Source: Escherichia phage megetsur
DNA length: 42,132 nucleotides
Sequence record: MN850608.1
Strand: one strand, 5' to 3'
How positions within the stretch are numbered: the first letter of the stretch is position 1; each line of letters starts with the position of its first letter. The translations under genes were made by a program, and so were the position numbers. Below the pieces are notes generated by a model that was not told the origin of the DNA, made no database searches, and saw only the letters and a program-made list of their open reading frames with translations. This document shows, piece after piece, positions 713 through 41,039 of the stretch.

Positions 713-991
713 TCTACCAAAACTGTAACTGCTTTCATCACCAAACGTGACGGCGAACTGTATGGCTTCGCTGTATCTCTGAACGAGGGCCAGTACCTGC
801 ACCACGTCCGTGAAGACGGCGAGCCGACCGATAACGCAGGCATCCTTGAAACGCTGGCTGGTATCCCGCTGCCGCATGAGTTCATCATCATGCTCGCTGA
901 GCAGGACGAAGACGAGCTGAAAGCGCGTCACGGTAGCGGCCTGACGCTGGAAGAAATCGGCACCTTCGAAGCCGAGGTTGACGACGAGTAA
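710..991 (+). CDS. small acidic early protein, paralog family member 1 (93 aa)
   Basis: ATG 710 with AGGAG 7 nt upstream; strongly acidic, C-terminal TFEAEVDDE; the longer ORF-track start at 674 lacks an RBS. Confidence 0.6.
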   Translation: MSTKTVTAFITKRDGELYGFAVSLNEGQYLHHVREDGEPTDNAGILETLAGIPLPHEFIIMLAEQDEDELKARHGSGLTLEEIGTFEAEVDDE

Positions 992-3676: not shown

Positions 3677-3976
3677 ATGAGTAAGTGGAGTGAGAACGTA
3701 GCCAAGCTACAGCGCTGGTTGGTGGATGCCTTTGGCGCACCGCCAGCACCTGTGCATGACGACTCGCCGTTTCAATACGTCGAGAAGAAAACGCAGGAGC
3801 TTAAGCTGGGCGACTACGTGGTAGCATACGGCGGGTACATCCAGCGCATCGGTGCCGAGGAATATGACGGCAGCCGACTGGTTGTTACCAAACTGGGGCA
3901 TGGCCCTGAACGTGAGTGGCAGGCGTACGAGGACGACGAGTTCACCGTGCGCATTTTAAAAGGTGATAACAAATGA
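3677..3976 (+). CDS. hypothetical early protein (99 aa)
   Basis: ATG 3677 with GAGAGG upstream. Confidence 0.5.
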   Translation: MSKWSENVAKLQRWLVDAFGAPPAPVHDDSPFQYVEKKTQELKLGDYVVAYGGYIQRIGAEEYDGSRLVVTKLGHGPEREWQAYEDDEFTVRILKGDNK

Positions 3977-4485
3977 TTGACTTCAAAACATTTAACCCTC
4001 AGCAGTTGGCTGTGATTAAAATGCTGGCCGACCACATCGACAGCGAGCCGATGCTCAGTGAAATCATTGAGTACAAAGGCGGGTACATGCCGAAGCAAAG
4101 CTACATCGGCGCGGTGCGTGCTGGTAAAGAGGCGGCGCTGGATATTATTCCGGCCACTCGTACTGGTGCGCTGCTGGCTCGCAACGTCAGCGTCATCATC
4201 GGCATGAATATGCGGGTGGCGCAGGCTGCTGGCGACGAAGAAGCACAGGTCGAGCTGCGTCTGGCTGGCAAGCTGGCGGCGCAGGCCATGTCGAGCAAGG
4301 ATATTGCTGAGCAGTATCACGACTGGTACATGGCGTGCGCCAACGTGCCGAAGGATATCAGCGAGACTGCGCTGGGTCTGCTGTTCGTGGGTGAGTTCAT
4401 TGACGCAACGATTCGTACCCTCAAGGGTAACGTTGAAGAAATGATTCGTGCAATGCTGGAGTCGAAGAATGCAACGCGACACTAA
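3973..4485 (+). CDS. hypothetical early protein (170 aa)
   Basis: ATGA start/stop overlap with the upstream gene; protein-like composition, unlike the overlapping minus-strand ORF 3814-4509. Confidence 0.55.
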   Translation: MIDFKTFNPQQLAVIKMLADHIDSEPMLSEIIEYKGGYMPKQSYIGAVRAGKEAALDIIPATRTGALLARNVSVIIGMNMRVAQAAGDEEAQVELRLAGKLAAQAMSSKDIAEQYHDWYMACANVPKDISETALGLLFVGEFIDATIRTLKGNVEEMIRAMLESKNATRH

Positions 4486-4639
4486 GCTGGCCGTAATCAA
4501 ATCACCCACCGGATTATTCTGGTGGGTTGTTAATAAACTCCAGCCGAATAAACCTTTGGCTGTACGTGATACAAAGTGGGAGGCCGAGAGTAAACTCGAA
4601 GACCTGCAACGTATAGTGCGTAATGTTATTCCGGCGTAG
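4469..4639 (+). CDS. hypothetical small basic protein (56 aa)
   Basis: ATG 4469 with GGAG 7 nt upstream. Confidence 0.35.
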   Translation: MQRDTKLAVIKSPTGLFWWVVNKLQPNKPLAVRDTKWEAESKLEDLQRIVRNVIPA

Positions 4640-6057: not shown

Positions 6058-7323
6058 GTGCTTGACAAGCTGTTGTTAACGGTGATGCGCGAGCGCGGGA
6101 AGTATAACTCCCTGCGACACGCCATCCCGGAAGATACCATGAGCCAGACCACGGGCTATATGCTGCGTGCTTACGGCTCATACTTTGACGCGTTCCCGGA
6201 CAGTGACTTCATTGACATTGAGACACTGGGTACGCACGTTCGTTTAAAGACAGGCAGCACGCCTGAACAGATGGCGGCCTTTGATTCCCTGTGTGCTCAG
6301 CTCAAAGAGTATCAGCCCACGAAGGAACAGAAGGAAGGCATCCTTGACCAGCTCGTAGAGTTGGACACCGCTGGCCGTGCGAACCTGCTGATGCAGAGGT
6401 ACGACAATGGTGAAGAACTGGATATTATCTATGAGCTTGGCCGTCTGGCTGAGGGCGCACGCCGCAGTCGGGGCCAATCATCAGTTACCGATTACGTCGA
6501 TGACGATGTGGTTGACATTATTAATCGCACTGATGATGACCAAGGTTTTAAGTTCGGTCTCATGTGTCTGCAAGATAGCGTACGCGTACTGCTTCCCGGC
6601 GACTCCGTTGCAATCGCTGCCCGACCTGACAGTGGGAAGACCAGCTTCATCGCGTTTAACCTTACGCGAATGGCGGCGACAGCGGCGAAGCTGTATCCGG
6701 GCAGACCAATCCTGTGGTTCAACAACGAAGGGCAGGGCATCAACATCATCCCGCGCATCTATCAGGCGGCGCTCAACTGTACGCTCCCGGAACTGAAAGA
6801 GCTGGGTGAGGACAGGAGCAAGCTGCACGCTGCGTATGCCAAGGCACTGGGTGCGCCAGCCAATGTGATTCGTGTGAAGGATATGCACGGCGCGACGCTG
6901 GCAAAAGCTGAGCAGGTTATCGAAGCGATGAACCCGTGCATCGTGGTGTGGGATATGCTTGCCAACTTCAAGCTGTCTGTGTCTGACCCGTCGAGCAACA
7001 AGGCGAGTCAGGTTGAGCAGCTATGGCAGGAGGTACGTGAGCTGGCAGTGCGACACAACTTCGTGTCACTGGCTACGGTTCAGGTATCAGCCGATGGTGC
7101 CGACGATATGTTCCCGGCGCTTGACGCATTGAAGGATTCCAAGACTGGTATCCAAGGGGCGACTGATGTTATCGTGATGCTCGGCAGCGTGGATGACCCA
7201 TCGCTGGCGGCGCGGCGCGGTGTCAGTACGCCGAAGAACAAACGCCAGATTGCTGGGCGTCCAAGCAACGTGCGGTCACAGGTACACTTCTTTGCTGACC
7301 GCTGCCAATATGAGGATATGTAA
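6058..7323 (+). CDS. replicative DNA helicase (DnaB / T7 gp4 helicase-domain family)
   Basis: Walker A AARPDSGKTSF; 421 aa; GTG start with AGGAGAG upstream. Confidence 0.8.
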   Translation: MLDKLLLTVMRERGKYNSLRHAIPEDTMSQTTGYMLRAYGSYFDAFPDSDFIDIETLGTHVRLKTGSTPEQMAAFDSLCAQLKEYQPTKEQKEGILDQLVELDTAGRANLLMQRYDNGEELDIIYELGRLAEGARRSRGQSSVTDYVDDDVVDIINRTDDDQGFKFGLMCLQDSVRVLLPGDSVAIAARPDSGKTSFIAFNLTRMAATAAKLYPGRPILWFNNEGQGINIIPRIYQAALNCTLPELKELGEDRSKLHAAYAKALGAPANVIRVKDMHGATLAKAEQVIEAMNPCIVVWDMLANFKLSVSDPSSNKASQVEQLWQEVRELAVRHNFVSLATVQVSADGADDMFPALDALKDSKTGIQGATDVIVMLGSVDDPSLAARRGVSTPKNKRQIAGRPSNVRSQVHFFADRCQYEDM

Positions 7324-15901: not shown

Positions 15902-16104
15902 GTGTTTTACTTTGGATTGTAGCTGTGGTATGGTTTGCCCTGTTCTCTGTTGTCTGGCTGCGTGTGACCAGTACAACAAGACACACGTTGACAGGTCTGG
16001 TGCAGCAGGATTTATCCTGTGGGTATTCTTGGCTGTCATCCCTGCTATTCTGTTTGCCTGTCTTGCGTAGGAGATTGTATGAGTCGTTATCAAAGAGCCA
16101 TTGA
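15898..16104 (+). CDS. small membrane protein (68 aa), two hydrophobic segments
   Basis: ATG 15898 with AAGGA upstream; hydrophobic LLWIVAVVWFALFSVVWL and SWLSSLLFCLPVL, then RRRL. Confidence 0.4.
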   Translation: MSVLLWIVAVVWFALFSVVWLRVTSTTRHTLTGLVQQDLSCGYSWLSSLLFCLPVLRRRLYESLSKSH

Positions 16105-16393
16105 CGACACGGTGGTTGACCATAAAGTGTGTGGTGCCTGCATGGGTAGCGGCACCTACCGTGGCATGTTGATTGGTGGGCAGGTAGTCCTGATGGATTG
16201 CGAAGCCTGCGGCGGTACGGGTACGAATGACCCGACACTGCAACATTCTGTACTGAGTGACTTAGGCCAGCGCAAACAAGCGCAGCCGGGATATGACGAG
16301 CCGGGCAAGCCATCATACGGCGTAGGTCTCGTTGAGCAGTACGCCGAAGACGGCAAGCTGATTGAGCACCTGAGCAAACAAGTTAAGGAGTAG
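16079..16393 (+). CDS. DnaJ-type zinc-finger protein (CxxCxGxG repeats)
   Basis: CGACMGSG and CEACGGTG; ATG 16079 with AGGAG upstream. Confidence 0.5.
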   Translation: MSRYQRAIDDTVVDHKVCGACMGSGTYRGMLIGGQVVLMDCEACGGTGTNDPTLQHSVLSDLGQRKQAQPGYDEPGKPSYGVGLVEQYAEDGKLIEHLSKQVKE

Positions 16394-16395
16394 TC

Positions 16396-18828
16396 GTGGA
16401 TTTACTTGCAGAGCAGATTCGACTTGAAGAAGAAGCGCGAGCCAGACACCGCGAGGGCTGGCTGGATAATATCAAAGAGGCGATGGCCAGTGGCCGCGCC
16501 GGGTCGGTGCCGTTGCTCCAGCGTATGATGGTTGAGGCTTATCCTCTGGTCGAAGCTGCGATGCAAGAAACCCTGAGCGAAACGACCCGTGGATATGGTG
16601 CGCAGTACCGGACGTACATGCGTGAGATTGGCACCAAAGCGTGTGCCTCTCTCGCACTGAGCATGGCGGTGTCCGGTGCTGCGTCGGAGCAGGCGGTACT
16701 GAGTCTGCTCAAGAGCATGGGCAAGGCACTGATGGCTGAGGTGGTGTATCTCCGGGCGAAGCAGACCGGGCCACAGCAGGCGGCGTACATGGAGCGCGTT
16801 AAGCAGGACGTGAAGAAGTCTCGCTCGAAGTCAGCGAACCACGTCTACAACAAAGCGCGTGCGTCGGCGGCGAACGTTGGGGTAGAGATTGATGTGCTGC
16901 CGCAGCGTGCGCTGATTACCATTGGCAAGCTGATGATGAAGTGCGTCGAGCCAACTGGTCTGGTGTCCACGATTCGCGTCGGCGGCAACCAGCGCCAGCG
17001 CGGTACGGCACACTTCGCACTGCACGAAGATGTGCTGGCTACGATGAACGACTGGCTGGACATGCCGCGTGCTGATGGCATGTGCTGCCCACCGCTGATT
17101 ATCCCACCGAAGCAGATTGCCCCGAACGGTCGCAGCGGTATGTGGCATTCCGATGGGCAGGCAGCGATGTACCGGGTCATGAGTCGCATGAACCACAAAG
17201 GGTATCGTGCATTGAACGTTGACCCGACCCCCGTTATAGAGCCGTGTATGATGCTCAGCAGCGTTCCGTACCGAGTTAACCCAATGGTACTGGAGTTCCT
17301 GCGAACGAACCGTACAGGCGTTATGGGGCTGCCTGTGCCACCCCGTGAGCCTACACTTCCGTTCACCATCCCCGCTGGTGTGAGCTTTGCACAGTACATC
17401 AGCAAGTTCCCACCAGAGATGCAGCAGCAGATGGATGCCGAAGCTCACGAGTACAAGGTGAAGACTCGCTTGTATTACAATGAGTTGCGTAAGTTCACGT
17501 CGCAGATGCTGGCGTTGAATGGTGCAGTCAAAGAGGCAGACAGGTATGCGCAGTACGATAGGATTTATCTCCCGACTTACGCCGATACGCGGGGCCGAAT
17601 TTATTATTCTTCGACCCTTAACCCTCAGTCTATCGACGCGGTGCGAGCGCTGCTTGAGCTTGCGGAACCAGTGGCTCTCGGAACTGAGGGGCTGTTCTGG
17701 CTCAAGGTTCATGTTGCGAATTGTTTCGGATATGACGCAACAGACTTCGACGACCGGGCGGCGTGGACGGACAAGACACTCCCCCGACTACGTGAGGCGT
17801 GCCGTCTTCCAGAGGCATTTGATTCGTTCTGGTCAGAAGCCGATAGCCCTATCAGCGCGTGGGCTGCCTCTGTTGAACTCATTCGCGCTATCGACTCAGG
17901 AAGTCCTGAGACTTATCCCTGCCGAGTGGTTACGCAATGGGACGCTACCTGTTCAGGATTACAGCACCTCAGTGCGATGCTACGAGATGAAGTTGGCGGT
18001 GCTGCTGTCAATCTTATCAATAGCGTGGGAAGAAAAGCAGACATATATCTCAAGACGGCAGCAGCGGCGATGCAGGCTCTTGAAGATAGTGAGGCGCAGT
18101 CACCGACGCAGATGGGTACGTGGCTTGTTTCAATCGGCATTGTCCGGGCGATGGCTAAGAAGCCAGTGATGACCTACGTGTACGGGGCAACCCGGCACGG
18201 TATGGTGGACTACTACTGCCTGTATCTGCGAGAGAACCGGGTCAAGCTGCCGGACGGCAAGAGCCTGCTGGAGTGTGCGCAGTTCATCGCAGAGTTCATG
18301 TGGAATGCAATCCCTCGCGTTGTGCCGAAGGCGGCAGAGCTGATGGCATGGTTGCAGGCTATCGCGGTTGAGGCGGCAGCCAACGGCGAGTACGTGGAAA
18401 TCATTGCACCATCAGGGTTGCGGGTGGTTAACCTGTATCAAGCCAGCAAGGAGACGATGCTCAACAACATCAACCTCATGGGTATCCACAGCATTAAGCT
18501 GCGCGAGTATCTGGACAAGCCGGACGGTAGGAAGTGTGCCGCTGCGATTGCTCCGAATTTCGTACACGCCATGGATGCCAGCCACATGATGAAGGTGTTG
18601 TGGGAGATGTGGAATAACGGGGTGTACATGGTGTCCATCCACGACTCGTTCGGGGTGGCGGCTGCACATGCCGGGTTACTCCACAAGGTCATTCGTGAAA
18701 AGTTCGTACAGATGTATGAGCAACATGACCCAATTCAACAACTTGCTGTACGATACAATGCTGTTGCACCTGAACGGGGCAATCTGGATATCCAGCTTGT
18801 GAAACAATCAAGCAAGTTTTTCTGCTGA
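16396..18828 (+). CDS. single-subunit DNA-dependent RNA polymerase (T7-type)
   Basis: DATCSGLQHLSAMLRDEVGGAAVNL and HDSFGV match T7 RNAP catalytic motifs; GTG start with AAGGAG upstream. Confidence 0.95.
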   Translation: MDLLAEQIRLEEEARARHREGWLDNIKEAMASGRAGSVPLLQRMMVEAYPLVEAAMQETLSETTRGYGAQYRTYMREIGTKACASLALSMAVSGAASEQAVLSLLKSMGKALMAEVVYLRAKQTGPQQAAYMERVKQDVKKSRSKSANHVYNKARASAANVGVEIDVLPQRALITIGKLMMKCVEPTGLVSTIRVGGNQRQRGTAHFALHEDVLATMNDWLDMPRADGMCCPPLIIPPKQIAPNGRSGMWHSDGQAAMYRVMSRMNHKGYRALNVDPTPVIEPCMMLSSVPYRVNPMVLEFLRTNRTGVMGLPVPPREPTLPFTIPAGVSFAQYISKFPPEMQQQMDAEAHEYKVKTRLYYNELRKFTSQMLALNGAVKEADRYAQYDRIYLPTYADTRGRIYYSSTLNPQSIDAVRALLELAEPVALGTEGLFWLKVHVANCFGYDATDFDDRAAWTDKTLPRLREACRLPEAFDSFWSEADSPISAWAASVELIRAIDSGSPETYPCRVVTQWDATCSGLQHLSAMLRDEVGGAAVNLINSVGRKADIYLKTAAAAMQALEDSEAQSPTQMGTWLVSIGIVRAMAKKPVMTYVYGATRHGMVDYYCLYLRENRVKLPDGKSLLECAQFIAEFMWNAIPRVVPKAAELMAWLQAIAVEAAANGEYVEIIAPSGLRVVNLYQASKETMLNNINLMGIHSIKLREYLDKPDGRKCAAAIAPNFVHAMDASHMMKVLWEMWNNGVYMVSIHDSFGVAAAHAGLLHKVIREKFVQMYEQHDPIQQLAVRYNAVAPERGNLDIQLVKQSSKFFC

Positions 18829-18854
18829 TAAATAGTGATATGTATCATTGACTT

Positions 18855-18877
18855 AAATGAAAGTGTCTATAGTGATA
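18855..18877 (+). promoter_or_regulatory. copy B of the conserved element ATGAAAGTGTCTATAGTGATA; candidate phage-RNAP promoter ahead of the late genes
   Basis: Exact 21-mer also present inverted at 40536-40556; contains CTATAG; followed by palindrome GTGATA-GA-TATCAC (18872-18885). Confidence 0.4.
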
Positions 18878-18938
18878 GATATCACGCTACCGGTAGCCCC
18901 GTCAGTGGCGGGGGTTGCTGCCACTAAGAGAGGATTGT

Positions 18939-19124
18939 ATGGGTAAAGAATCTCCACTTGAAAGAGTTCAGTTCACTAAAGCACAGTTAGCTCTACTGGA
19001 GAAGCACTTCGGTACATGGTCTCAGGTAGGTAAGACAGTCACTCCCGACACTAACCTACCTCTGATTAACAGAGAGGCTGGTAAGCAAGACGTTCTGGAT
19101 TTCATCAGAGAAAGAGTGATTTGA
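18939..19124 (+). CDS. hypothetical protein (61 aa)
   Basis: ATG 18939 with AGAGAGGA upstream. Confidence 0.45.
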   Translation: MGKESPLERVQFTKAQLALLEKHFGTWSQVGKTVTPDTNLPLINREAGKQDVLDFIRERVI

Positions 19125-19125: not shown

Positions 19126-19545
19126 ATGAAAGTGTCTACTATGGGAAATACATCACACACGACGATGCCACTCGACATTCGCCGTGCTGTGGCCGAAGGC
19201 ATTCAAGCTGAGCGGCCATGGTCAGACCTATCTCCCGATGTGATTGTTGACAGCATGTATGAGGCCACCGCCTCCGGTTGCGTTGACGTTTACATCACTG
19301 ACGATGACGGCAGCCTAATGGCTGTTGCTCACATCGGCAGGTTATTCGATATTCATGTGGGCGAGATGGTGGTCGTTATGGCCTCATACGTCTGGCCCCA
19401 GTACAGAAACCGTGGAGTGATGCGTGCCATCCTCCGTGTACTCAAAGACGTGGCCCGTTCAGCGGGTGTGCGTTGGTGCGGTTACTCCCATATGGTGCGG
19501 CCTTACGTTCAGGAGTACCGCTTCATTGATTTGGAGAAACCGTAA
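19126..19545 (+). CDS. hypothetical protein, possibly GNAT-like acetyltransferase
   Basis: Degenerate acetyl-CoA-binding-like motif WPQYRNRGVMRAIL; its first 15 nt repeat the promoter-like element. Confidence 0.35.
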   Translation: MKVSTMGNTSHTTMPLDIRRAVAEGIQAERPWSDLSPDVIVDSMYEATASGCVDVYITDDDGSLMAVAHIGRLFDIHVGEMVVVMASYVWPQYRNRGVMRAILRVLKDVARSAGVRWCGYSHMVRPYVQEYRFIDLEKP

Positions 19546-19807: not shown

Positions 19808-21373
19808 ATGACTCAAGACGCGCAGAACGTCAGCTATGAGTCTCTGTGGCAGAAGTACCGGGATAGCAACGTTGTCACGAAAGCGCGGGAGTACAGCCGC
19901 TACACACTGGCTAAGCTGGTGAGCGAGTACGACCGCAGTGACGTGGACGACATGAACCGCCAGCAGATTACTCGTGATTACCAGTCTGTCGGCGCTCTGC
20001 TCGTCAACAACCTGACCGCTCGGTTGGGTGAGTTCCTGTTCCCGGCTTCCGCACGATTCGTGAAGCTGAAATTAAACAAGGTGTCTGACCAACAGCGGCA
20101 GTCTATGTCGCAAGTGAATCAGGCGCTTATCACTATTGAGAAGGCCATCGTAGACAAAGCCAAAGAGAATGGCGGCTACGCTGACCTGCTCCAGTGCATT
20201 GCCCAACAAGCTGTGACCGGAAACGCCGCGCTGTACCGCGATATGGAAACTGGTTCGTACCGAGTGTACGGATTGGAATCCTTCGTGGTGCAGCGCGACG
20301 GTCGTGGCGTTGTGGTGGATGCTATTATCAAGGAGCGCATCCAGTGGGATTCTCTGCCGAAGGACTTTCAGAATGAGCTGAACTCCAAAGGCTTCCGCTG
20401 TGGTGGGAACAAACGCGTGTGGCTGTACACCCGCGTCCTTCGCGTTCAGAAGGACAGTGGCAATTACGGCTATGAAGTAACGCAGCAGATTGGCAACTAC
20501 CAAGGCTGCGTCTATACCCCCGGTAAAGATTACTACCCTGAAAAAGTCTGCCCATGGTTATTCCCAGTGTGGTCTTTGAAGTCTGGCGAGCATTACGGTC
20601 GCGGGATTGTCGAAGACCACGCTGGGGATTTCGCACGTCTGTCGCTCCTGTCTGAGCATTCTGCTCTGTACATGCAGGAAGCGCTGCGCGTGCTGTGGAT
20701 GCTCACTGGCTCTGGCGGCAACGTCGATGACATTGAGAGCGCAGAGACTGGGCAGGTCATTCCACTCCAGAACGGCACCACGTTGTCGGGGCTGGAGGTC
20801 GGGGATTACCAGAAAGTTCAACAGGCCCGTGACGAAATCAACCAGATTGTGCAGCGACTGGCGCAAGCCTTCATGTACACTGGTGAGTTCCGTGACTCCG
20901 AACGTACCACCGCCACCGAAGTGCAGCAGGTAGCAACCAGCGCCGAGCGTGGGCTGGGTGGGCCGTACTCAATGCAGGCTAAGACCCTCCAGATTCCTCT
21001 GGCGTATGTCCTGCTCGCGGAGATTGACGAGTCCACCGTACCAGATATCGTCGGCAACATCCTGTCGCTTCAAGTCGAAGCTGGCTTGGATGCCCTCGGT
21101 CGAAGCATTGAAGCTGAGACGCTTATCAGAGCGCTCTCCGACTCGCAGGCAGCAATGGTTGCTGTCCAGAATATTAATGGCGTTGCTAACACCATCGACC
21201 CTCAGAAAGTCCTTGAGGTTATCTTTGCCTCCAATGGTGTTGCGCTGGACGACTATCGTAAGTCGCCACAAGACTTGGCCCAAGAAGGTCAGGCCATCGA
21301 CAATGCAGCCGCTGCCGCCGCTGGCGTACAGCCGGGCGCAGTTGATGTAGCGCCTAACATCGCACAGATTTAA
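19808..21373 (+). CDS. head-tail connector (portal) protein
   Basis: 521 aa, first large gene of the structural module, followed by scaffold and capsid as in T7 gp8-gp9-gp10. Confidence 0.75.
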   Translation: MTQDAQNVSYESLWQKYRDSNVVTKAREYSRYTLAKLVSEYDRSDVDDMNRQQITRDYQSVGALLVNNLTARLGEFLFPASARFVKLKLNKVSDQQRQSMSQVNQALITIEKAIVDKAKENGGYADLLQCIAQQAVTGNAALYRDMETGSYRVYGLESFVVQRDGRGVVVDAIIKERIQWDSLPKDFQNELNSKGFRCGGNKRVWLYTRVLRVQKDSGNYGYEVTQQIGNYQGCVYTPGKDYYPEKVCPWLFPVWSLKSGEHYGRGIVEDHAGDFARLSLLSEHSALYMQEALRVLWMLTGSGGNVDDIESAETGQVIPLQNGTTLSGLEVGDYQKVQQARDEINQIVQRLAQAFMYTGEFRDSERTTATEVQQVATSAERGLGGPYSMQAKTLQIPLAYVLLAEIDESTVPDIVGNILSLQVEAGLDALGRSIEAETLIRALSDSQAAMVAVQNINGVANTIDPQKVLEVIFASNGVALDDYRKSPQDLAQEGQAIDNAAAAAAGVQPGAVDVAPNIAQI

Positions 21374-24234: not shown

Positions 24235-26678
24235 TGCCAGTATACCAAGGCGCTTATAAATCCATCCTCGGCGGCGTGAGCCAGCAGGTCTATACCGACC
24301 GACAGCTATCGCAGGTTGAGGAACAGGTCAACATGACCTCTGATACTGTTCGTGGCCTGCGGAAACGCCCCGGCACCCGACTGCACCGCACTGTGGATTC
24401 CACTAACGCGAACGTCTGGAGCCTTGGTAACTTCGGCCACTTACGCTTCTATACCACTAACCTCGGATGGGGCATCACCACGTTTATCGTCAACACGAAG
24501 ACTGGTTACGTCACGTCCATCGTCGAGACCGAGACTGTCCAGTTCATGGGCCAGTCCAGCTATCTCGTCACGAACAACCCCGACGACATTGTATTCGCCA
24601 CCGTGGGCAACACCATGTATGTTGCCAACTGCTCCAAGCTGCCCGTGCTTCTGGAGAATGAAACGCGTATGAATCCGGGTCGCCGGGGTTACTACTTTGT
24701 GCTGGCAGGGGCGTACGGTAAGCAGTACACCGTGCGTGTCGAGACCAGCGGGGGCGCTGTGTCCGCTTCGTACACCACCCCTAACTCAGACGAGACTGGC
24801 GCGTCTGCAAAGGCTGTGCCTGAGTACATCATTGGCCAGTTGAAATCTCAGCTCGACGCTGCCATCGGCGGCGCGACCGGGCTTGAGGTTGTGCAGGTTG
24901 ACGGGGCATACATGTACCTCCAGACCACTGCTGCGTACACTGACCTGAACGTGTCCACCAACACTGGCTCCAGCTATGCGATTGCCTCGAACACGCACCG
25001 CGTCGATTTAACCACCAAGCTCCCGGCACGTCTGCCGACTCAGGCTGGTGGCTTCATCATGACCGTTGGCGACGACAGCTTCGCCCAGTATTTCCAGTGG
25101 GACTACGCGAACTCGCGCTGGGTGGAGAAGGGTGCCTACGGCTCCCCAACCGGGATTAACCCCAGCACCATGCCGCTGATTTTCAGCACGACCTCGACTA
25201 CGAACCAGCACACCTTTGCGCAGGGTACGTGGCCGGGCCGACTGGCAGGTGATGATAAGACCAACTCCATCCCAGCATTCACTGATGCTGACGGCGTGGG
25301 TATTACTGGACTGGCTTCCTTCCAAGGCCGCCTGATTGTGTTCTCCGGGCCGTACATTACCATGGGTTCCAGCAACAAGGAAGACCGCAACAACTTCTTC
25401 CGTACGACTGTGACGCAGGTACTGGATGACGACCGTATCGAGTTCACTGCATCCAGCTTCGCCGGAGCATCGTTCCGGTACGGTATCCCGTTCAACTCTG
25501 ACCTGATTCTGGCCAGTGAAGAACACCAAGCTGTCATCCCCGGACGTAACCAAATCCTCACGCCGAACAACGCCACCGCTGTGTTGACCTCGACGTACCA
25601 GATGGACACTGGCGTAGCGCCTACCACTTCTGGCCGCAGCCTGTATTACGCGTACCCGCGCTCGAACAGCTCGTTCTCCATCAAGGAGATGCTGCCGTCC
25701 GGCTACACGGATTTGCAGTACGTGAGTCAGGATGTGACTGACCACCTGCCGACTTATCTGGAAGGGGCCAACTCGTACATCTCTGCCAGCACCACGAACA
25801 ACATCGTCGTGTTCGGCTCGACGACTGAGAAGTCCACGCTGTACGTGAACGAGTATCTCTGGTCTGGTGACGAGAAGGTTCTGTCCTCGTGGCACCGCTG
25901 GGAAATCTATGGCACCGTGCAGGCTGCATGGTTCGTACGTGAGGTTCTGGTTGTGCTGGTTGAGCAGCAGGGCCATATGAACTTGCTCACGTTATCCATG
26001 CGAGACTCCCCTGACCCGACTGACCCGGCGCGATTCCTCCCGGCCATCGACTACGCCCAGTTAATGACTGTGACGAACCCGGCCACGGACAGCTCGTACA
26101 TCCAGTTCGCCGCGACAGGCGAGCAGAAGGCGCTGTGGGATATCATCCAGTACCGCTACCAGACTGAGGGCAACTGGGATTTCATGACGAACGTAGTGCC
26201 GTCCGGCAACTACATCGGGGCTGAGGTGGGTATCAAATCCATCGACACCACGAACCGCCGTGTCTATCTCCAGCCTTCGTACGGCAGCACCTCACTGTAT
26301 GTGGGCCTGCGATTCAAAGCAGTGTTCAGCCCTACGCCGCCGCGAGTGTTCAATCAGGACGGCTCGTACATGGATGTGAACAAGATGGTCATCATGCACT
26401 ACAACTTCACGTTGCGGTACACGAGCCTGTTCAACATCACTGCGAGCGACCGGGGCGCGTACTCCGCGCTGAACATTATCAGCAGCCCTATCCGGTACAC
26501 CAGTCAGGAGTTAGGTCTGGAGTCAGCGACGCTGGCTAAGCGTGCGCACTTGAAAGTTCGCATGGGTCTTGAGGTGGAATCCAGCAGCATGGTCGTGGAC
26601 TCGTCTACGGCTGGCGACCTGAACATTCAGGGGCTGGGCTACTACATCAAGTTCTACAACAAAGTTCGGAGAATCTAA
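24234..26678 (+). CDS. tail tubular protein B
   Basis: 814 aa; synteny and size as T7 gp12. Confidence 0.75.
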   Translation: MPVYQGAYKSILGGVSQQVYTDRQLSQVEEQVNMTSDTVRGLRKRPGTRLHRTVDSTNANVWSLGNFGHLRFYTTNLGWGITTFIVNTKTGYVTSIVETETVQFMGQSSYLVTNNPDDIVFATVGNTMYVANCSKLPVLLENETRMNPGRRGYYFVLAGAYGKQYTVRVETSGGAVSASYTTPNSDETGASAKAVPEYIIGQLKSQLDAAIGGATGLEVVQVDGAYMYLQTTAAYTDLNVSTNTGSSYAIASNTHRVDLTTKLPARLPTQAGGFIMTVGDDSFAQYFQWDYANSRWVEKGAYGSPTGINPSTMPLIFSTTSTTNQHTFAQGTWPGRLAGDDKTNSIPAFTDADGVGITGLASFQGRLIVFSGPYITMGSSNKEDRNNFFRTTVTQVLDDDRIEFTASSFAGASFRYGIPFNSDLILASEEHQAVIPGRNQILTPNNATAVLTSTYQMDTGVAPTTSGRSLYYAYPRSNSSFSIKEMLPSGYTDLQYVSQDVTDHLPTYLEGANSYISASTTNNIVVFGSTTEKSTLYVNEYLWSGDEKVLSSWHRWEIYGTVQAAWFVREVLVVLVEQQGHMNLLTLSMRDSPDPTDPARFLPAIDYAQLMTVTNPATDSSYIQFAATGEQKALWDIIQYRYQTEGNWDFMTNVVPSGNYIGAEVGIKSIDTTNRRVYLQPSYGSTSLYVGLRFKAVFSPTPPRVFNQDGSYMDVNKMVIMHYNFTLRYTSLFNITASDRGAYSALNIISSPIRYTSQELGLESATLAKRAHLKVRMGLEVESSSMVVDSSTAGDLNIQGLGYYIKFYNKVRRI

Positions 26679-27422: not shown

Positions 27423-30119
27423 ATGGCTACTTTGCGTGACCAGCGTGGCGCTAACCTTAATGCTGCGCAGCAGGGATTACCAAGTGTGCAGCAGGCGCAG
27501 ACTCCGTTTAGTCTCGCAGGCCGCGATACTCGCATCGACACGTTTCCTACCGAGTCCATTCAGCGCGTACTGAACATGGCCAGCCAGTTGGCTGGTCGTG
27601 TCACTGAGCGTGCGAACGAGGAAGAATACCTCAAGGGTGCTAACGCCGCCGCGAGCGGTAAGGCTGTTGAGGATTTGGACTCGAACTGGCTCACCGCCCA
27701 GTTCCAGAAAGCTGGTTACAACGACCAGTACAAGCGTATGCAGATGGCGAACGTCGCATCTGAAATCTCGGCTAACATGCCGCAGTACGCGAAAATGAGT
27801 CCTGACGAGTTCTTGAAGGTGGTGGACGAGAAGACCACTGGCCTGTTTGAGAACACTGATGGCATGACGCTGAATGGCCGTAAGGCTCTGCTGGAGAACC
27901 AGCTCACGTTCAGCAACACCCTTATCCGTACGCAGGCTGCCCAGCATGGTAAGTATCTGGTTGAGCAGCGTGCGGCGATGTACAACTCGCAGGGTAACAC
28001 TCTCGTTACTCTGGCGGCTCAGGCCAAAGCAACTGGTGACGGCGGCGCGTACGCTAACGCTACGGCTGCGACCATGGCATGGGCCAAGTCCATTCTGGCA
28101 GACGACAAGCTGCCACTGGAAACTCGCCGGACTCAGGTAACGTCCATGATGGGGCTGATGCTCCAGCAGGATTTGCGTACTCCGGTCGAGACTGCTGTGA
28201 ACTCCGGGCTGTTCAACGAGCTGCCTGCGGAAGACTTGGCCAAGCTGCAAGGTCAGATTCGTGAATCCAAATCTCGTACCGAGGTTCAGGACAACATGGG
28301 TCTGCTGGCACAGAAAGGCCAGCTCGACGCACGCCAAGCAGTGTTCGGTGACGTTACGCCGGAGCAGTACACTCAGACGCTCCAGCAGATGGTGGACAAC
28401 AAACTGATTAGCGCTGGCGGTTTCAGCTCGGCTATCGAGTCCTTCTACAAGGACTACGCCAAGCAAGCCAAGGCCAGTCAGCTCGGTCAGGCTTACGCTA
28501 CCGGGAACCAGACGTACATGCTCCAGCAGGGCGCGAGCGAGCAGGATGGTGCTGACGCATTCATCAAGGCTCGCATGAAGCAACCGGGCGCGACGGCAAG
28601 CTCCGTGGCATTCGACCTGCTGCAAGTTGGCGCACAGACTGGTTTCCCTTCCGCGTACAAGTCTGCCGCGAAACTGATTGAACCATCCCTGTCGAACTTC
28701 GGCACCGTGGATGAAATGAACCCTGATGCAGCCGCTACCGTAACCGGGCTGATTGACCGCGTAACCGTGGCCGAGAATCAGGGTGACAAGACCGCGTGGA
28801 CTAAACTCCTGTCTGGTCTGTCTGAGGAAAACCAAGAGAAGATGGTGTACATGCGCGAGCAGATTAAGGCCGGGCGCACCATCGACCAAGCTGGTCAGGG
28901 TTACATCAAGCAGCAGCAGGACTATGCTGGCTTAACCCCGGCACAGAAATCTCAAATTCTCACGCAGCGTCAGTCAGACGTTAACAATGTGGTGAACTCC
29001 CTTGAGGCTCAGGGCTTCTTCTCTCGCACTTGGCAGGGGCTGGCTGGTCTGTTCTCAGACACTCAGCAGAACCTGTTCCAAGCTCGCGTCGCATCTGGTG
29101 ACATTACTGCCGCGCAGGAAATGTCGGAGGTGTCTGCCGCGTACCGCGAGGAACTGCAAGCTGTCGTCCTCAAGAACCCGAACGTGACCAAAGATGGTAT
29201 GGAAGCCCTCGCATCCGCGAAGCTGGCTAACCGTGTCCTCCGCGTCGGGGAAACCACATTCAGCCCCGGCTCTGTGCTTATCGCACCGAGAGGCCAAACT
29301 GTTCAGTCTATGCTCGGCTTGCCTGCTGACGTAGCCCCCGACCGCATCGGTCGCGCTATCGCCGCACTTGACCAGACCAAGGCACCAGAAGGCTTCGAGT
29401 CGTCCTACTCCTTTATGCCAGATGGCTCCCTGAACGTTCAGTTCTTCAACAAGCAAGGTGACGTTTCTCCGAACTCGGTACGCATTCTGCCGCAGGTCGT
29501 GCAAGAACGCATCCGTGAAGACGACCGTGCAGCGGCCACTGCCAATAACGAAGTCTATGGCGACGGGAAACTCTTTGTTGATAAGACCAGTAACGTGGGT
29601 ATCCGCGTGAACGGCGTGAATACTGCTGGGGTAGACGAGCAGCGTATGCTTGTTGCCCGTGGCAAACTGATTGACTTCGAAGGTATCCGCAGCACCACTT
29701 ACCGTGACAGCACTGGCGTGCAGGCGAACGGGGTTGGTATCTCTGACCGCAGCCCGTACTTTGCTGAGGGTCAGGCTTCCGGTATGAAAGGCGGTACTGA
29801 ATGGTCTCCGCGAACTATCCACGATACGTTCGTGGCACACACCAACATGGTAGCCCGGCAGATGCCCGGCACTGCTGCTGCACTGGGGTGGAGTCGTGAC
29901 AACGATGCCCAGTTCCAGTTCATGATGCAGATGGGTTATCAGGCAGGTTCAAGCTGGTATCGTACCGAGGGTGCGTACAGCAAACTGGCTGATGCAATCC
30001 GTGTTGGCGACCGAGAGAAAGCTGTTCAGGCTCTGGCTGCGACCCCGGCTTACAAGCTGTCGCAGGACGAGCGTAAGCAGTATTACGTCCAAACTCTACT
30101 CGCAGGTATGCAGGAATGA
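27423..30119 (+). CDS. internal virion protein B (core/ejection protein)
   Basis: 898 aa; synteny with T7 gp15 and the phiKMV internal virion protein. Confidence 0.6.
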   Translation: MATLRDQRGANLNAAQQGLPSVQQAQTPFSLAGRDTRIDTFPTESIQRVLNMASQLAGRVTERANEEEYLKGANAAASGKAVEDLDSNWLTAQFQKAGYNDQYKRMQMANVASEISANMPQYAKMSPDEFLKVVDEKTTGLFENTDGMTLNGRKALLENQLTFSNTLIRTQAAQHGKYLVEQRAAMYNSQGNTLVTLAAQAKATGDGGAYANATAATMAWAKSILADDKLPLETRRTQVTSMMGLMLQQDLRTPVETAVNSGLFNELPAEDLAKLQGQIRESKSRTEVQDNMGLLAQKGQLDARQAVFGDVTPEQYTQTLQQMVDNKLISAGGFSSAIESFYKDYAKQAKASQLGQAYATGNQTYMLQQGASEQDGADAFIKARMKQPGATASSVAFDLLQVGAQTGFPSAYKSAAKLIEPSLSNFGTVDEMNPDAAATVTGLIDRVTVAENQGDKTAWTKLLSGLSEENQEKMVYMREQIKAGRTIDQAGQGYIKQQQDYAGLTPAQKSQILTQRQSDVNNVVNSLEAQGFFSRTWQGLAGLFSDTQQNLFQARVASGDITAAQEMSEVSAAYREELQAVVLKNPNVTKDGMEALASAKLANRVLRVGETTFSPGSVLIAPRGQTVQSMLGLPADVAPDRIGRAIAALDQTKAPEGFESSYSFMPDGSLNVQFFNKQGDVSPNSVRILPQVVQERIREDDRAAATANNEVYGDGKLFVDKTSNVGIRVNGVNTAGVDEQRMLVARGKLIDFEGIRSTTYRDSTGVQANGVGISDRSPYFAEGQASGMKGGTEWSPRTIHDTFVAHTNMVARQMPGTAAALGWSRDNDAQFQFMMQMGYQAGSSWYRTEGAYSKLADAIRVGDREKAVQALAATPAYKLSQDERKQYYVQTLLAGMQE

Positions 30120-33100
30120 TTACACAAGAATCGCTCGACAAGTTCATGGCTCCCAAGCAGGGGGCCAATGCCCCTACGCTGGTGATTCCAGCTCCCGTAA
30201 AGACTGCTGACCTCAGCACTCCGCTGCAAGATGCCACTCGTCAGGGTGCTGTCGAGCAGTTCGATAAGATGCAGGAACTGGAAGCGACTCCGATGGCCAC
30301 GGCGTTGAGCGCTTCTGTGAAGAACTGGGATACCACTCAGCTCTTTGATGCCGCCTTCAACAAGCCTACCTTCCAAGCTGACCCGGACTTCAAGCCCAAC
30401 GAGGCTTTGCAGAACGTGCAGTTCCCGGTAGGTGAAGACGACAGAACCTTCCTGTTCAAATCCAAATCCATGGACGAGTTCAACTGGCGTACGCAGCAGC
30501 TCCAAGAGATGCGCGAACGTACCCAGTTGGCTCACACTGCCCCGGTGATGAACGCGGTTCTGCAATTCGCTGACCCGCTGTACCTCGCCACTGACCTGCT
30601 CTCGATGGGAGCAGGCACTGCCCTGAAATTAGGTCGCCTCGGAACCGCCGCTGTCGGTGCAGCTTCAACTGCTGCCACTATGACAGCGGTGGGTAACGAA
30701 GCACGCCCAGTGTCTCAGAACGAAATCATCTTTGCGGCTGCCCTGCACGGGGCGGCCACCACTGCATTCTATCGCCCGGCTCCGGTACAGCGCTCGCTGG
30801 CCGACCTGTCGCCAGAGGAATTTGCAGCAGAGATGCAGCGTCGTAATGGCATTGACCCGAACAACCCACCGCAGTTCGACCCGAACAATGCTATGTCGCC
30901 AATGGCCATGTCCTTGGGCTTTGGTGGTCGTGGCGCTACTGTGGTTGACGAGGTGCCGGAATCAATCCGGGCCACTGCGCAGCGCGGTCTCGACCTCGCT
31001 CGTCGCGGTGAGCAGACCAACCCTAAGCGTCCGTTCCTTGAATGGTCTCTGTTCAAGTCATTCAGTCAGCACTCCGATGAAGCCAGTGCGCTCGCCGGAC
31101 GACTGCTGGACGACCCACTGAACCCGAACATGACTTCCGCTGCATCAATCCAGCGTGAGACTCAGGCTCGGTTTGGCGTGCTGCTGAACCAGTACGAGGA
31201 CACTCTGCGTAATGCACTGAACACTGACGGCTGGACTAACATCCGTCGCTTCCGTGACCCCGTGGGCTATCGCCGGGCGCAGCAGGAGTTCGAAGCTGCT
31301 GTCCGTTTCGAGCTGGACAAGCGCATGATTGACAAAGAGTTCCGTGGTGCCAACGCTAACGTGGCCGCTGCCGCCGACCGACTGGGGGAATACTCCCGCG
31401 CCGTGGGCCGCGAGCTGGAAGCGAAGGGTATGGTGGAACCGGGCTTCGTAGACAAGAACCCGTACTACTACCCGCGCCGGATGAACGTGACCAAGATTGA
31501 GCAGGCTGAGCAGTTGCTCGGCAAGAAGCCATTCATGAAGCAGATGACGACCGCTGTGCAGCGCGGTATCGGTACTGACCGTCCGACTGCCAACGTCATT
31601 GCCCATGCCATGGTTGAGCGTGCTCGTCGTAAGGGCTACGGCATCGACAACTCCGGTATGATTATCAACAAGGAAGGTCGAGATGAATTGCTCGAAATCA
31701 TTGAGAACGCGAAAGGTCTCGACGAGGCTGCCAAGGCCCGTGCTTCCGCACTCCTTCGTGAGTCTGGCTCGGACGCTGGCCGACCGTCGATGCTCAAGAG
31801 CCGTATCAACATCGACATGATGCACCAGCTCGGCCCTAACTTGCAGGTGCGTGACCTGTTCGACGACAGCATCACCAGTATGATGGACAGCTATAACCGC
31901 CGCATTACCGGGCGACTGGCTCTGCATGAGGCTGGACTGGGTACTGACGCTGAACGCGCCGCCGCTCGCGAGGCTCTGGCCAAATCCATCCCGGATAGCA
32001 CGGCACGCCGTAAGGCTCTCGACCAATACGACAACATCATGGCTTACTACCAAGGTGCTCCTGTTGGTGAGGAAATGCCGGAGTTCATGCGCCAGCTTTC
32101 AGCACTGACTCAGGCGACTGGTCTGGCTGCATCTGGCCTGTGGCAGTTGGTAGAATACGGCACGATGATGCAACGTTTCGGGGCAGTCAATACGTTTCGC
32201 GCCATGATGCGTACAATTCCCGAAGCACGCGCACTATTTAAGCAAATGAGGGTGTCTACTAAGGAAGGTCGTCAATTGGCTCTGGATGCCGAGGAAGCGC
32301 TGACTGCGGCTGTAGCGAGTGATATTCGTATGCGCCCAATCATGCAGCACTATGACGACATGTTCTCTGCGGATAAGTCTCCGTGGGTCATGCGTATGGA
32401 ACACCTGCGCGATGCCACGATGTTCATCAACATGCAGAAGTACATCCACTTCCACCAGACTCGAACCAATGCTGCGCTCGTGATGCAGACGCTGCGTAAG
32501 GCAGCCGAAGGTGATGCCAAGGCTATTGCAGCCATGAAAACCTACGGTGCCAATGACGCGCTGCTGGCTGACATTCGCAAGCAGGTTGGTACTCATGGCA
32601 CCAAGCCTGATGCTTGGGATGAAGGGGTGTTCAATCGCTCTCGCATTGTCATGATGAATGCCATGGATGACGCTATTGTTCGCGCTCGCGTAGGTGAGCT
32701 GCCTGCATTTGCTGAGTTCAGTACGCTGGGTAAGTTCCTGTTTACGTTCCGTCGATTCGTCGCGGCAACGCACAACAAGACTCTGGTTGGTACTTGGAAT
32801 CGTGAGGGTGCCCGTGGGCTGGCTACGCTGATGGCGTACCAGTATCCGCTGGCGATGATGGCCACTGCTGCCAATAACGTGATTTCCGGTAAGGCATTCT
32901 CTGACCCGGATACCATGGCTCCGAACAAACTGGCTGGTCAGGCACTGAACTATCTCGGTGCTATCGGCTTTGCCTCTGAGTTCACTGGAGTTCTGACCGG
33001 GCAGCAGCGCAGCTTTGGTGCGCCGGGTCTGTTGTTCCTCGACCGCCTGTACGGTGTTGCTGGTGCCACCTCTGCTACGGCAGGTAGTCTGGCCACTGGT

Positions 33101-33220
33101 GATATTGACCAAGCCGGGCATAACGCTCGCAAGGCAGCCGGGAACATCATTCAGGCTCTCCCACTAATCTCCATTGTGCCGGGTGTCCGAGCACTCAACG
33201 AAGCAGTTAAGGGTGAATAA
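30116..33220 (+). CDS. internal virion protein C (largest core/ejection protein)
   Basis: 1034 aa; synteny with T7 gp16. Confidence 0.6.
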   Translation: MITQESLDKFMAPKQGANAPTLVIPAPVKTADLSTPLQDATRQGAVEQFDKMQELEATPMATALSASVKNWDTTQLFDAAFNKPTFQADPDFKPNEALQNVQFPVGEDDRTFLFKSKSMDEFNWRTQQLQEMRERTQLAHTAPVMNAVLQFADPLYLATDLLSMGAGTALKLGRLGTAAVGAASTAATMTAVGNEARPVSQNEIIFAAALHGAATTAFYRPAPVQRSLADLSPEEFAAEMQRRNGIDPNNPPQFDPNNAMSPMAMSLGFGGRGATVVDEVPESIRATAQRGLDLARRGEQTNPKRPFLEWSLFKSFSQHSDEASALAGRLLDDPLNPNMTSAASIQRETQARFGVLLNQYEDTLRNALNTDGWTNIRRFRDPVGYRRAQQEFEAAVRFELDKRMIDKEFRGANANVAAAADRLGEYSRAVGRELEAKGMVEPGFVDKNPYYYPRRMNVTKIEQAEQLLGKKPFMKQMTTAVQRGIGTDRPTANVIAHAMVERARRKGYGIDNSGMIINKEGRDELLEIIENAKGLDEAAKARASALLRESGSDAGRPSMLKSRINIDMMHQLGPNLQVRDLFDDSITSMMDSYNRRITGRLALHEAGLGTDAERAAAREALAKSIPDSTARRKALDQYDNIMAYYQGAPVGEEMPEFMRQLSALTQATGLAASGLWQLVEYGTMMQRFGAVNTFRAMMRTIPEARALFKQMRVSTKEGRQLALDAEEALTAAVASDIRMRPIMQHYDDMFSADKSPWVMRMEHLRDATMFINMQKYIHFHQTRTNAALVMQTLRKAAEGDAKAIAAMKTYGANDALLADIRKQVGTHGTKPDAWDEGVFNRSRIVMMNAMDDAIVRARVGELPAFAEFSTLGKFLFTFRRFVAATHNKTLVGTWNREGARGLATLMAYQYPLAMMATAANNVISGKAFSDPDTMAPNKLAGQALNYLGAIGFASEFTGVLTGQQRSFGAPGLLFLDRLYGVAGATSATAGSLATGDIDQAGHNARKAAGNIIQALPLISIVPGVRALNEAVKGE

Positions 33221-39942: not shown

Positions 39943-40059
39943 GGGTATCCAAAAGCTGACGCAATGAACAGGCCGTGGGTGCAATACCCCGGCTTGAAAA
40001 TTGCACGTTTATGCTTGCCCCTCCCTCGACCCAAATGACCGCGCGTGCCCCCATAGCGT

Positions 40060-40530
40060 GTGCGCGGATTAGCCTCGCGACGTGCGCGATATTTGCTCGC
40101 GTGCGCTGCGCGGCGCGTCAAGAGGATTGCCTGCGTGCGGTATAGCTCGTGCGTGTCGCGTTTCATCGTCTGCCGTGTGGCGTGCTGTGCGCTGTCCTGC
40201 TGGCTGTGCTGTGCGGTGCTGTCCTATGGGGACGCTCTGCGCTGGCTGTGCGGTGCTGCGTGCTGCGCTCGGTCGGGCGGGTATCTGTCTCTTTTGCTCG
40301 CAAGCTCTGCGCCGTGGTGGTGCTGTGTGGTGGCGGTGGTGCTGCCGTGGTGCTGTCCTGTCTGCTGGCCTACTGTCTGCGCCGCCAGCTCTGCGCGTCA
40401 TGCTCTGCTACTGTGTCACCTGTCCTACTGCGTTCACTGGCTGCCGCCTGTCATCCTGTCGGATTCCATCCGTTGCCGTTCCGCGCTCGCTTGTTTCGGC
40501 TGCGCCGCGCTCGCTCTGCGTATCTAGCGA
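40060..40530 (+). repeat. strand-skewed G/T-rich low-complexity tract (A-poor on + strand)
   Basis: Reiterated GCTGTG, GTGGTG, CTGCGC units; three + frames and one - frame stay open, which is composition-driven and not coding. Confidence 0.7.
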
Positions 40531-40535: not shown

Positions 40536-40556
40536 TATCACTATAGACACTTTCAT
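40536..40556 (-). promoter_or_regulatory. copy D (inverted) of the 21-bp element ATGAAAGTGTCTATAGTGATA
   Basis: Exact reverse complement of 18857-18877; flank similarity extends to about 50 bp; the + strand here reads TCACTATAG, identical to T7 promoter positions -8 to +1. Confidence 0.4.
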
Positions 40557-40562
40557 AATTAT

Positions 40563-40583
40563 CTAATGATTACAGTAACTTAT
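40563..40583 (+). repeat. 21-bp direct repeat, copy 1 (CTAATGATTACAGTAACTTAT)
   Basis: Exact second copy at 40642-40662; contains palindromic core TTACAGTAA. Confidence 0.85.
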
Positions 40584-40641
40584 GACCTATCTGATAACGG
40601 TATTCTATCCAGTGTTGTGATTATCCAATCAAACTTTAATC

Positions 40642-40662
40642 CTAATGATTACAGTAACTTAT
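40642..40662 (+). repeat. 21-bp direct repeat, copy 2
   Basis: Identical to 40563-40583, 79 bp downstream. Confidence 0.85.
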
Positions 40663-40683
40663 CACTTTTCTTGAAAATAATAC

Positions 40684-40713
40684 TTGCAAACTGTTTTGGT
40701 TATGTGCTGTAAT
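40684..40713 (+). promoter_or_regulatory. sigma70-type promoter P0 (TTGCAA-N18-TGcTGTAAT)
   Basis: -35 TTGCAA at 40684-40689, extended -10 TGCTGTAAT at 40705-40713. Confidence 0.5.
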
Positions 40714-40785
40714 TCATCACGTCTAAAGGCACTAGCCCAGTAGACACAGACAGACGGTAGCATCGCTCTTTAACAATCTGGTGTG

Positions 40786-40814
40786 TTGACAAGGCAAGCT
40801 CACTATGCTGTAAT
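40786..40814 (+). promoter_or_regulatory. sigma70-type early promoter P1 (TTGACA-N17-TGcTGTAAT)
   Basis: Consensus -35 TTGACA, 17-nt spacer, extended -10 TGCTGTAAT. Confidence 0.6.
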
Positions 40815-40922
40815 GCTTCCAGTCAGCCAGACAAGCCAAATAGTGATGGATAAACACGTTAACACCCGCGTAGGCTAACTGGTACGGTTTAATTAACTCA
40901 GAACGGGCGCTGATTAAATCGG

Positions 40923-41031: not shown

Positions 41032-41039
41032 CAGCACCG

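Follow-up and report, generated by a model that had tools for sequence, protein, structure and literature searches.

Directly behind the gene for the single-subunit RNA polymerase (RNAP) of Escherichia phage megetsur lies a 21-bp sequence, ATGAAAGTGTCTATAGTGATA, which occurs exactly at 18857-18877 on the + strand and again at 40536-40556 on the - strand of the 42,132-nucleotide (nt) stretch analysed here (sequence record MN850608.1; hereafter the window). The question raised by this locus is what such an element does. A first-pass annotation made from the sequence had read it as a phage RNAP promoter of ambiguous orientation, as a duplicated gene start, as a recombination site or as a regulatory site. 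Comparison of the window with related genomes indicated that the element is very probably a promoter for the phage's own T7-type single-subunit RNAP, present as a set of five copies (P1 to P5). The copy set, its synteny, its orientation and its co-variation with the specificity loop of the RNAP were established by sequence comparison.

Copies of the element, their sites and their orientation

The comparison set consisted of 11 fetched relatives and the window, 12 genomes in total (window, BHUENT7, altidsur, glasur, ROV85, RZ4, Kc261, usur, J8-65, smaasur, Lidtsur and LIMEzero). The window showed 93-99% identity to the Bonnellvirus phages mellemsur, Ec1-ASingh, BHUENT7 and altidsur, a group of Escherichia and Enterobacter phages, and J8-65, Lidtsur and Pantoea phage LIMEzero were its more distant kin. 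LIMEzero belongs to Waewaevirus, the sister genus of Bonnellvirus, and its RNAP is 70% identical. All window genes are carried on the + strand. The first nucleotide of J8-65 (TCGACCC) aligned to window position 40027, which indicated that the window is circularly permuted relative to the virion genome, whose physical left end is at approximately 40027. The reversed exact copy, previously placed after the lysis genes, lies instead at the virion left end just past the terminal repeat. The impression that the inverted pair encloses the structural, packaging and lysis block likewise arose from the point at which the window was cut; in the linear genome it is the early and middle genes that lie between the two copies.

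Both exact copies were confirmed, and 100 dinucleotide-preserving shuffles produced zero 21-mer matches even at ≤3 mismatches. The flank similarity between the 18857 and 40536 loci, first estimated at about 50 bp, covered approximately 56 nt (local alignment score of 60; shuffle mean 21, maximum 34). The partial + strand copies, at 4676 (ATGAAGGTGTCTA) and 19126 (ATGAAAGTGTCTA), were also real, as a 13-mer search with ≤2 mismatches gave 6 matches compared to 0.5 expected, and every + copy does open with ATG AAR GTG TCT as described. A position weight matrix (PWM) scan of the window added to P1-P4 only P5, which the first-pass annotation had missed. P5 was the weaker copy with a PWM score of 17 compared to 29-35 for the other four, and no further site in the window scored above 12. 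Three copies (P1-P3) are intergenic while P4 and P5 overlap coding sequence, and four of the five are in sense orientation. P4 is located 269 bp downstream of P3, and the 139-amino-acid gene on which it lies (19126-19545) belongs to phrog_3986. Positions of all copies and associated features are given in Table 1.

Table 1. Copies of the element and associated features in the window (start sites, +1, are predictions).
Feature	Position	Strand	Description
P1	40536..40558	-	Reversed copy; predicted +1 = G40539 (-); leftward into the terminal repeat
P2	4674..4696	+	Early/middle boundary, before the replication module; TTATGAAGGTGTCTATATT followed by GGCC; predicted +1 = G4693
P3	18855..18877	+	Directly behind the RNAP gene, before the late genes; AAATGAAAGTGTCTATAGT followed by GATA; predicted +1 = G18874 (ATG = -17 to -15)
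P4	19124..19146	+	On the start codon and codons 2-6 of a conserved 139-amino-acid gene; predicted +1 = G19143
P5	32244..32266	+	Within the internal virion protein gene (30116-33220), its ATG in frame as codon 711; AAATGAGGGTGTCTACTAA followed by GGAA; predicted +1 = G32263
Single-subunit RNAP gene, 810 amino acids	16396..18828	+	T7 RNAP alignment, E = 1e-57 over residues 6-781
Specificity-loop codons, RNAP residues ~685-702 (SKETMLNNINLMGIHSIK)	18448..18501	+	Alignment to T7 RNAP
Direct terminal repeat equivalent	40027..40273	n/a	Single copy in the permuted assembly; alignment to the annotated 259-bp J8-65 repeat; boundaries inferred
Pause-like box GGGTATCTGTCTCTTTTG (GGGTATCTRTCTYTTTT; TATCTGTCTCTTTT)	40279..40296	+	~10 bp right of the repeat; invariant in 7 genomes amid indel-rich DNA
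Hairpin adjoining P2	4650..4674	+	CATGCCTGTT..AGCAGGCATT; -14.1 kcal/mol, z = -6.1; stem kept by compensatory changes in other genomes

The alignment with related phage genomes that had been proposed as a check showed that the element is conserved. A same-genome recurrence search with the sequence behind the RNAP gene found the P1-P4 sites in each of the 12 genomes, and the inverted left-end copy was present in every Bonnellvirus genome examined and in LIMEzero. The loose pattern ATGAARG-NNN-CTN matched just P1-P4 in each Bonnellvirus genome, with the exception of Lidtsur which had two more, weaker matches. A sixth candidate copy at 38566 (ATGAAACTGTCTC) was the same in all genomes regardless of class and was rejected as the spanin gene start only. 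A scan of IMG/VR with the core left open returned 15 DNA stretches; two of these, on one contig from a true relative, were its P1 and P3, and the remaining stretches were discarded as chance matches.

A total of 55 sites from the 12 genomes were aligned on the ATG. ATGA (-17 to -14), G at -11 and CT at -7/-6 were essentially invariant, and the three bases separating this G from the CT were variable. At 15 nt after the ATG, a G was found in 52 of the 55 sites; the exceptions were two Lidtsur sites and one LIMEzero site that had been entered one base out of register. The bases 3' of that G varied among copies (GATA, GGCC, GGGA and GGAA). These patterns suggest a promoter of the form ATGAARG-NNN-CTRYWNT followed by G, with the ATG at -17 to -15, the class bases at -10 to -8 and the G as +1. 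This predicted +1 would place the ATG at the distance of a T7 promoter of canonical length. T7 RNAP structures show that the specificity loop reads DNA at -10 to -8. As judged from the alignment, the element reads in the ATGAAAG-> direction, because only the ATGAAAG-side half is conserved, the class bases come to lie at -10 to -8 and four of the five copies have the same orientation as the genes. The promoter reading of the first-pass annotation was strongly supported, and the ambiguity in its orientation was removed.

Co-variation of the promoter core with the specificity loop

RNAPs of this clade are 66-99% identical to one another and their next relatives are ≤33% identical. The T7 loop residues R746, N748, Q754, R756 and Q758 aligned to residues ~690-703 of the window RNAP. 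Within each genome all copies share that genome's own core, which is GTGTC in the window, BHUENT7 and altidsur, GTGAC in glasur, ROV85 and RZ4, GCTAC in Kc261 and usur, GTAAC (with CTGT replacing CTAT) in J8-65 and smaasur, an own variant GTAAC/GTATC in Lidtsur, and GGCAAGCAC in LIMEzero. The six promoter classes corresponded one to one to six loop haplotypes in 11 genomes. P5 also co-varied with class in window/altidsur, glasur/ROV85/RZ4, Kc261, Lidtsur and LIMEzero. The uniformity within a genome holds notwithstanding the codon changes that it entails at P4 and P5: the residues at codons 3-4 of the P4 gene, and at codons 713-714 in the gene for the internal virion protein, switch between VS, VT, AT and AS with promoter class, which indicates that the DNA signal overrides the protein sequence.

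The correspondence also worked in the predictive direction, as the loops of RZ4 (GTGAC) and usur (GCTAC) were predicted from their promoters first and then found to be identical to those of glasur and Kc261, respectively. For the window and Kc261, whose RNAPs are 91.5% identical, the loop was the most divergent stretch of the RNAP, differing at 9 of 15 columns compared to 70 of 811 overall (Fisher p = 5e-7). Within the loop, S699G together with TM to IA accompanies the change of T to A at -8. The genome of usur was a mosaic in which the P2 flanks are glasur-like (98.4% and 92.8% identical to glasur, 93.2% and 76.2% to Kc261) but all cores and the RNAP (99.4% identical) are of the Kc261 class. 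On these alignments, the core tracks the polymerase allele rather than the local DNA ancestry. For usur it follows that either the RNAP allele was exchanged and each promoter was then reset, or short patches were converted site by site.

Several points weigh against this interpretation or limit it. The promoter classes coincide with RNAP clades too, so shared ancestry accounts for part of the one-to-one match, and the mosaic test hangs mainly on a single genome, usur. Degenerate forms of P5 occur in J8-65 and smaasur, and the +1 G is missing at two Lidtsur copies. Initiation, strength, timing and the exact +1 at the Bonnellvirus copies are predictions. By analogy with the KP34 and LUZ19 promoters, in which TWATG is followed by 11 nt and a G, the +1 could lie ~3 nt further upstream (18871-18872).

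Other readings of the element were weighed against the same alignments. On the opposite strand the element contains TCACTATAG, identical to the T7 promoter from -8 to +1 as the first-pass annotation had stated, and it could be taken as a T7-like promoter on that strand (TATCACTATAG followed by ACAC). The left-end copy would then fire rightward, sharing the direction of the T7 left-end promoter phiOL, and the 18857 copy would run antisense into the RNAP gene. The match appears to be coincidental, since the conserved half would be transcribed: the shared half and the class bases would fall downstream of +1, while the supposed -17 to -5 region differs among copies (TATCAC, GGCCAA, TCCCAT) and CACTATAG is missing from P2, P4, P5 and the J8-65 P3. 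Four of the five promoters would also be antisense and the late genes would be left without a phage promoter, and the opposite-strand reading is considered extremely improbable. A host sigma-70 promoter at 18848-18873 (TTGACT ... TATAGT), or an operator for a regulator such as a Q-like protein or a binder of GTGATA-NN-TATCAC palindromes, would account for the two hexamers near P3 and the palindromes on its flanks, and a gene of the phrog 'anti-termination protein Q-like' is found at 16019-16393, just upstream of the RNAP gene. The hexamers are separated by 14 nt (TTGACT-N14-TATAGT) and not by 16-18 bp, however, and a consensus scan gave no site at P3. In addition, the -35-like hexamer and the upstream palindrome are missing in glasur, Kc261 and J8-65, and the variation of the element follows the RNAP specificity loop specifically, which leaves little probability for a host promoter or operator.

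The ATG AAR GTN shared by every copy could also be explained by duplicated gene starts, encoding a short MKVS peptide or acting as a regulatory upstream open reading frame (uORF), or by recombination sites which invert or exchange the segment between them. A small part of the gene-start proposal stands, as P4 and P5 do overlap in-frame Met codons of real genes. The stop (18944-18946) of the 29-codon open reading frame (ORF) beginning at 18857 does overlap the ATG of the next gene at 18939. A functional uORF or peptide was not supported, since neither its length nor its frame is conserved. The ORF ranges from 7 to 88 codons with frame shifts among close relatives, is reduced to 12 codons by a 1-nt deletion in glasur, and is fused to the next gene in Kc261 and usur. 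No Shine-Dalgarno sequence precedes the ATG of P1, P2 or P3, and with the predicted +1 the ATG would lie outside the transcripts of these promoters. As for recombination, all 12 genomes were collinear in gene order, with no inversion variant among them. Both forms of this explanation are regarded as highly unlikely.

Known promoter systems and the reversed left-end copy

As promoters of the phage RNAP, the five copies form a layout of a known type that is largely expected from experiments on the related phage LUZ19. P2 would switch on the replication genes once RNAP has been made, and P3 and P4, in tandem behind the RNAP gene, would drive the late genes. With the predicted +1 at G19143, P4 transcripts would lack the start codon of the 139-amino-acid gene. 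P5, inside the structural region, would add to the transcription of the structural, packaging and lysis genes distal to it. P1 would fire leftward and reach the terminal repeat after ~250 bp of unique DNA, and on concatemers this transcription would carry on into the lysis cassette as antisense RNA.

In LUZ19, ONT-cappable-seq identified four phage-specific promoters, P001, P007, P008 and P009 (Putzeys et al. 2024, PMC10914365). Two are directly behind the RNAP gene, one is in the structural region, and P001 is reversed at the left end (PMC10914365). The antisense transcripts of P001 extend to the right-end genes, and P001 was suggested by the authors to block elongation into the early genes on the circularised genome (PMC10914365). 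The authors reported this layout for 15 other Phikmvvirus species as well (PMC10914365). We located the LUZ19 antisense motif at 732-748 (-), 260 bp from the 472-bp repeat (direct terminal repeat, 1-472) and 165 bp before the first sigma-70 promoter. LUZ19 and the window thus both have few, near-identical promoters of ~20 bp with a motif opening TWATG, an RNAP gene that ends the replication module, a tandem pair behind it, one promoter in the structural region, and a reversed promoter that lies past the terminal repeat but before the early sigma-70 promoters (~260 and ~263 bp from the repeat, respectively). In both, the top strand between the genome end and the reversed promoter contains little A (6-8%). 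They differ in that the RNAPs are ≤33% identical, the motifs are unrelated beyond TWATG, and the ATG is separated from the putative +1 G by 14 nt in the window but by 11 nt in LUZ19. The window clade has an extra promoter, P2, before the replication genes, and its genus holds at least six specificity classes whereas the Phikmvvirus motifs were reported as near-identical over 16 species. The LUZ19 sites were mapped experimentally while those of the window are predicted.

The LIMEzero record (GenBank NC_015585) annotates a 'putative phage specific promoter' at 7294-7313, after an annotated terminator, and at 20330-20349; these are the homologues of P2 and P3. LIMEzero follows the same logic as the window with a different core (AAGGCAAKCACTAWG), and its unannotated copies were found inverted at the left end (~636-656), at the start codon of ORF36 (20741) and in the internal-virion-protein gene (~33860). 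For the Drulisvirus KP34, a strong promoter T(A/G)ATGTTACAGGAGTA was determined by 5' rapid amplification of cDNA ends (RACE) and in vitro transcription (Lu et al. 2019, PMC6834552). The copy verified in vitro, TRATGTTACAGGAGTA, is directly behind the RNAP gene and a second copy is in the structural region (PMC6834552). KP34 resembles the window in its TAATG opening, its position just behind the RNAP gene and initiation at G (predicted for the window), but it has two strong copies only and a shorter promoter (16 nt). Another Drulisvirus, F19, had two sense copies of the KP34-type promoter, the second of which is inside the gene for an 'internal virion protein with endolysin domain', a product name shared with the P5 gene, and parallels P5. 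A search of the F19 left end for an inverted KP34-type strong promoter found none. At the T7 left end, phiOL is at nt 405, the leftward Escherichia coli promoter A0 at nt 224 and ATCTGTT at nt 161. Like the window, T7 has a phage promoter located after the terminal repeat and before the early host promoters, and a leftward promoter at its left end; the pause-like box of the window resembles the T7 signal in its place right of the repeat. Unlike in the window, phiOL is rightward, the leftward promoter A0 is a host promoter, and the left end is not depleted in A (30% A).

P1 lies ~510 bp inside the physical left end, with the terminal-repeat equivalent ~263 bp to its left and the first early promoter ~125 bp to its right. 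It precedes the early host promoters and is divergent from them. Its proposed role is insulation, in which leftward transcription would meet late read-through head-on and shield the early region of the next genome on concatemeric or circularised DNA. This role is favoured, tentatively, because it was proposed for the mapped LUZ19 counterpart. The absence of an inverted left-end copy in F19 is a point against it, and shows that a P1-type function is not universal. The box between the repeat and P1 (Table 1) resembles the class II pause/termination signal of T7 RNAP and would act on rightward read-through heading to P1; as such it would probably help insulation. Its position and T-tract agree with a class II signal, and in T7 the ATCTGTT begins at the first base after the repeat. 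The core of the box is ATCTGTC or ATCTATC and not ATCTGTT, and the RNAP is very unlike that of T7. The consensus of the class II signal was reported to tolerate no base change (bioRxiv 10.1101/2021.01.11.426313).

P1 is found at the border of a GC-rich stretch and a 29%-GC island (40550-40700). The island contains 30-nt direct repeats at 40563-40592 and 40642-40671 (CTAATGATTACAGTAACTTAT...), a motif that is kept in J8-65, and these repeats could be an origin-like or protein-binding site.

A replication or maturation role for P1 ranks behind insulation and is less probable than not by a clear distance. Its RNA would prime leftward synthesis through the repeat (as an origin or for repeat duplication), or P1 and the divergent early promoters would together unwind the AT-rich island and allow replication to start there. 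T7 phiOL acts as a secondary replication origin, and P1 sits where phiOL does, between the repeat and the host promoters. P1 also adjoins the island with its direct repeats, its spacing from the repeat is ~260 bp in both LUZ19 and this clade, and it is the copy most similar in sequence to the late promoter P3. On the other hand, phiOL is rightward while P1 has its back to the AT-rich island, none of the relatives has a mapped origin, the LUZ19 antisense transcripts continue to the right-end genes with no stop in the repeat, and the direct repeats show no co-variation with promoter class.

The base composition of the left end raised a further possibility. Between the genome end and P1 (40027-40535) the top strand contains 7.7% A, and the depletion was also found in J8-65 (8.6%), Kc261 (6.9%), LIMEzero (12%) and LUZ19 (6.7%), with an overall range of about 6.2-12%; these four phages all carry the antisense left-end promoter. 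The equivalent stretch has 30% A in T7 and 19% in F19, both of which are without an antisense left-end phage promoter. Since the top strand is poor in A, a leftward P1 RNA would be nearly free of U, and the sole top-strand T-run of ≥4 bases in the left-end stretch faces rightward transcripts. The reversed P1, the pause box and the ~500 bp of nearly A-free top strand might together form a direction-selective transcription gate at the concatemer junction, where the leftward RNA would resist termination owing to the A-depleted top strand and the rightward RNA would hold the only U-tract. The three parts co-occur in LUZ19, LIMEzero and Bonnellvirus, and not in T7 or F19. Such a gate is nevertheless judged improbable as a whole.

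Neighbouring features and significance of the promoter set

Beside P2, the adjoining hairpin (Table 1) is preceded by a second, terminator-like hairpin with a T-tract at 4505-4531 (+), after the gene at 3973-4485. The two hairpins together probably end early transcription by the host RNAP just before P2. Folding of the leader RNA downstream of P3 and P1 was no better than shuffles (z = -1.3 and +0.6, respectively). No stabilising 5' hairpin is claimed there, because a +1 at 18874 cuts off part of the GTGAT/ATCAC stem.

To the right of P1, four early promoter-like sites were found in tandem on the + strand at ~40684-40715, 40785-40814, 40922-40951 and 41003-41032 (TTGACA/TTGCAA-N17-TGTAAT). The four sites escaped the consensus scan because the -10 hexamer has a G at position 2. 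They are kept in J8-65, and the LIMEzero record annotates the equivalents as putative Pantoea promoters. An untranslated GC-rich leader of ~400 nt (41040-41463, +), highly conserved with J8-65, separates the early promoters from the first gene, a homologue of S-adenosylmethionine (SAM) hydrolase at 41464-41853. No Rfam family matched the leader, and an Rfam scan of the whole window gave no family over threshold. Finally, the records of relatives contain minus-strand coding sequences deposited as 'hypothetical protein', namely glasur_55 (41898-42374), ROV85_24 (24335-24700), altidsur_53 and altidsur_54. Two of them are located in non-coding left-end DNA, glasur_55 in the region of the terminal repeat and ROV85_24 amid the early promoters, and are probably spurious gene calls.

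Two papers on Bonnellvirus make no mention of promoters, and a 2025 genome mining of single-subunit RNAP promoters named neither Bonnellvirus nor Waewaevirus and left 741 genomes without a definite prediction (PMC11880802). The sites described here provide a complete, testable promoter map for Bonnellvirus and Waewaevirus, none having been published for Bonnellvirus. They also make up a natural series comprising six or more polymerase/promoter specificity pairs, distinguished by 1-3 promoter bases (-10 to -8) and a few loop residues, the type of data used in designing orthogonal T7-type expression systems. Promoters are seen here to override protein sequence, with codons of two genes keeping pace with the polymerase. 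If the gate at the concatemer junction were true, P1 antisense transcription into the lysis cassette would occur only on concatemers, unit-length DNA being exempt, and would couple lysis and early gene expression to the replication state. Overall, a reversed left-end promoter common to distant phiKMV-like lineages, LUZ19 and a clade whose polymerase is ≤33% identical, argues for a conserved function.

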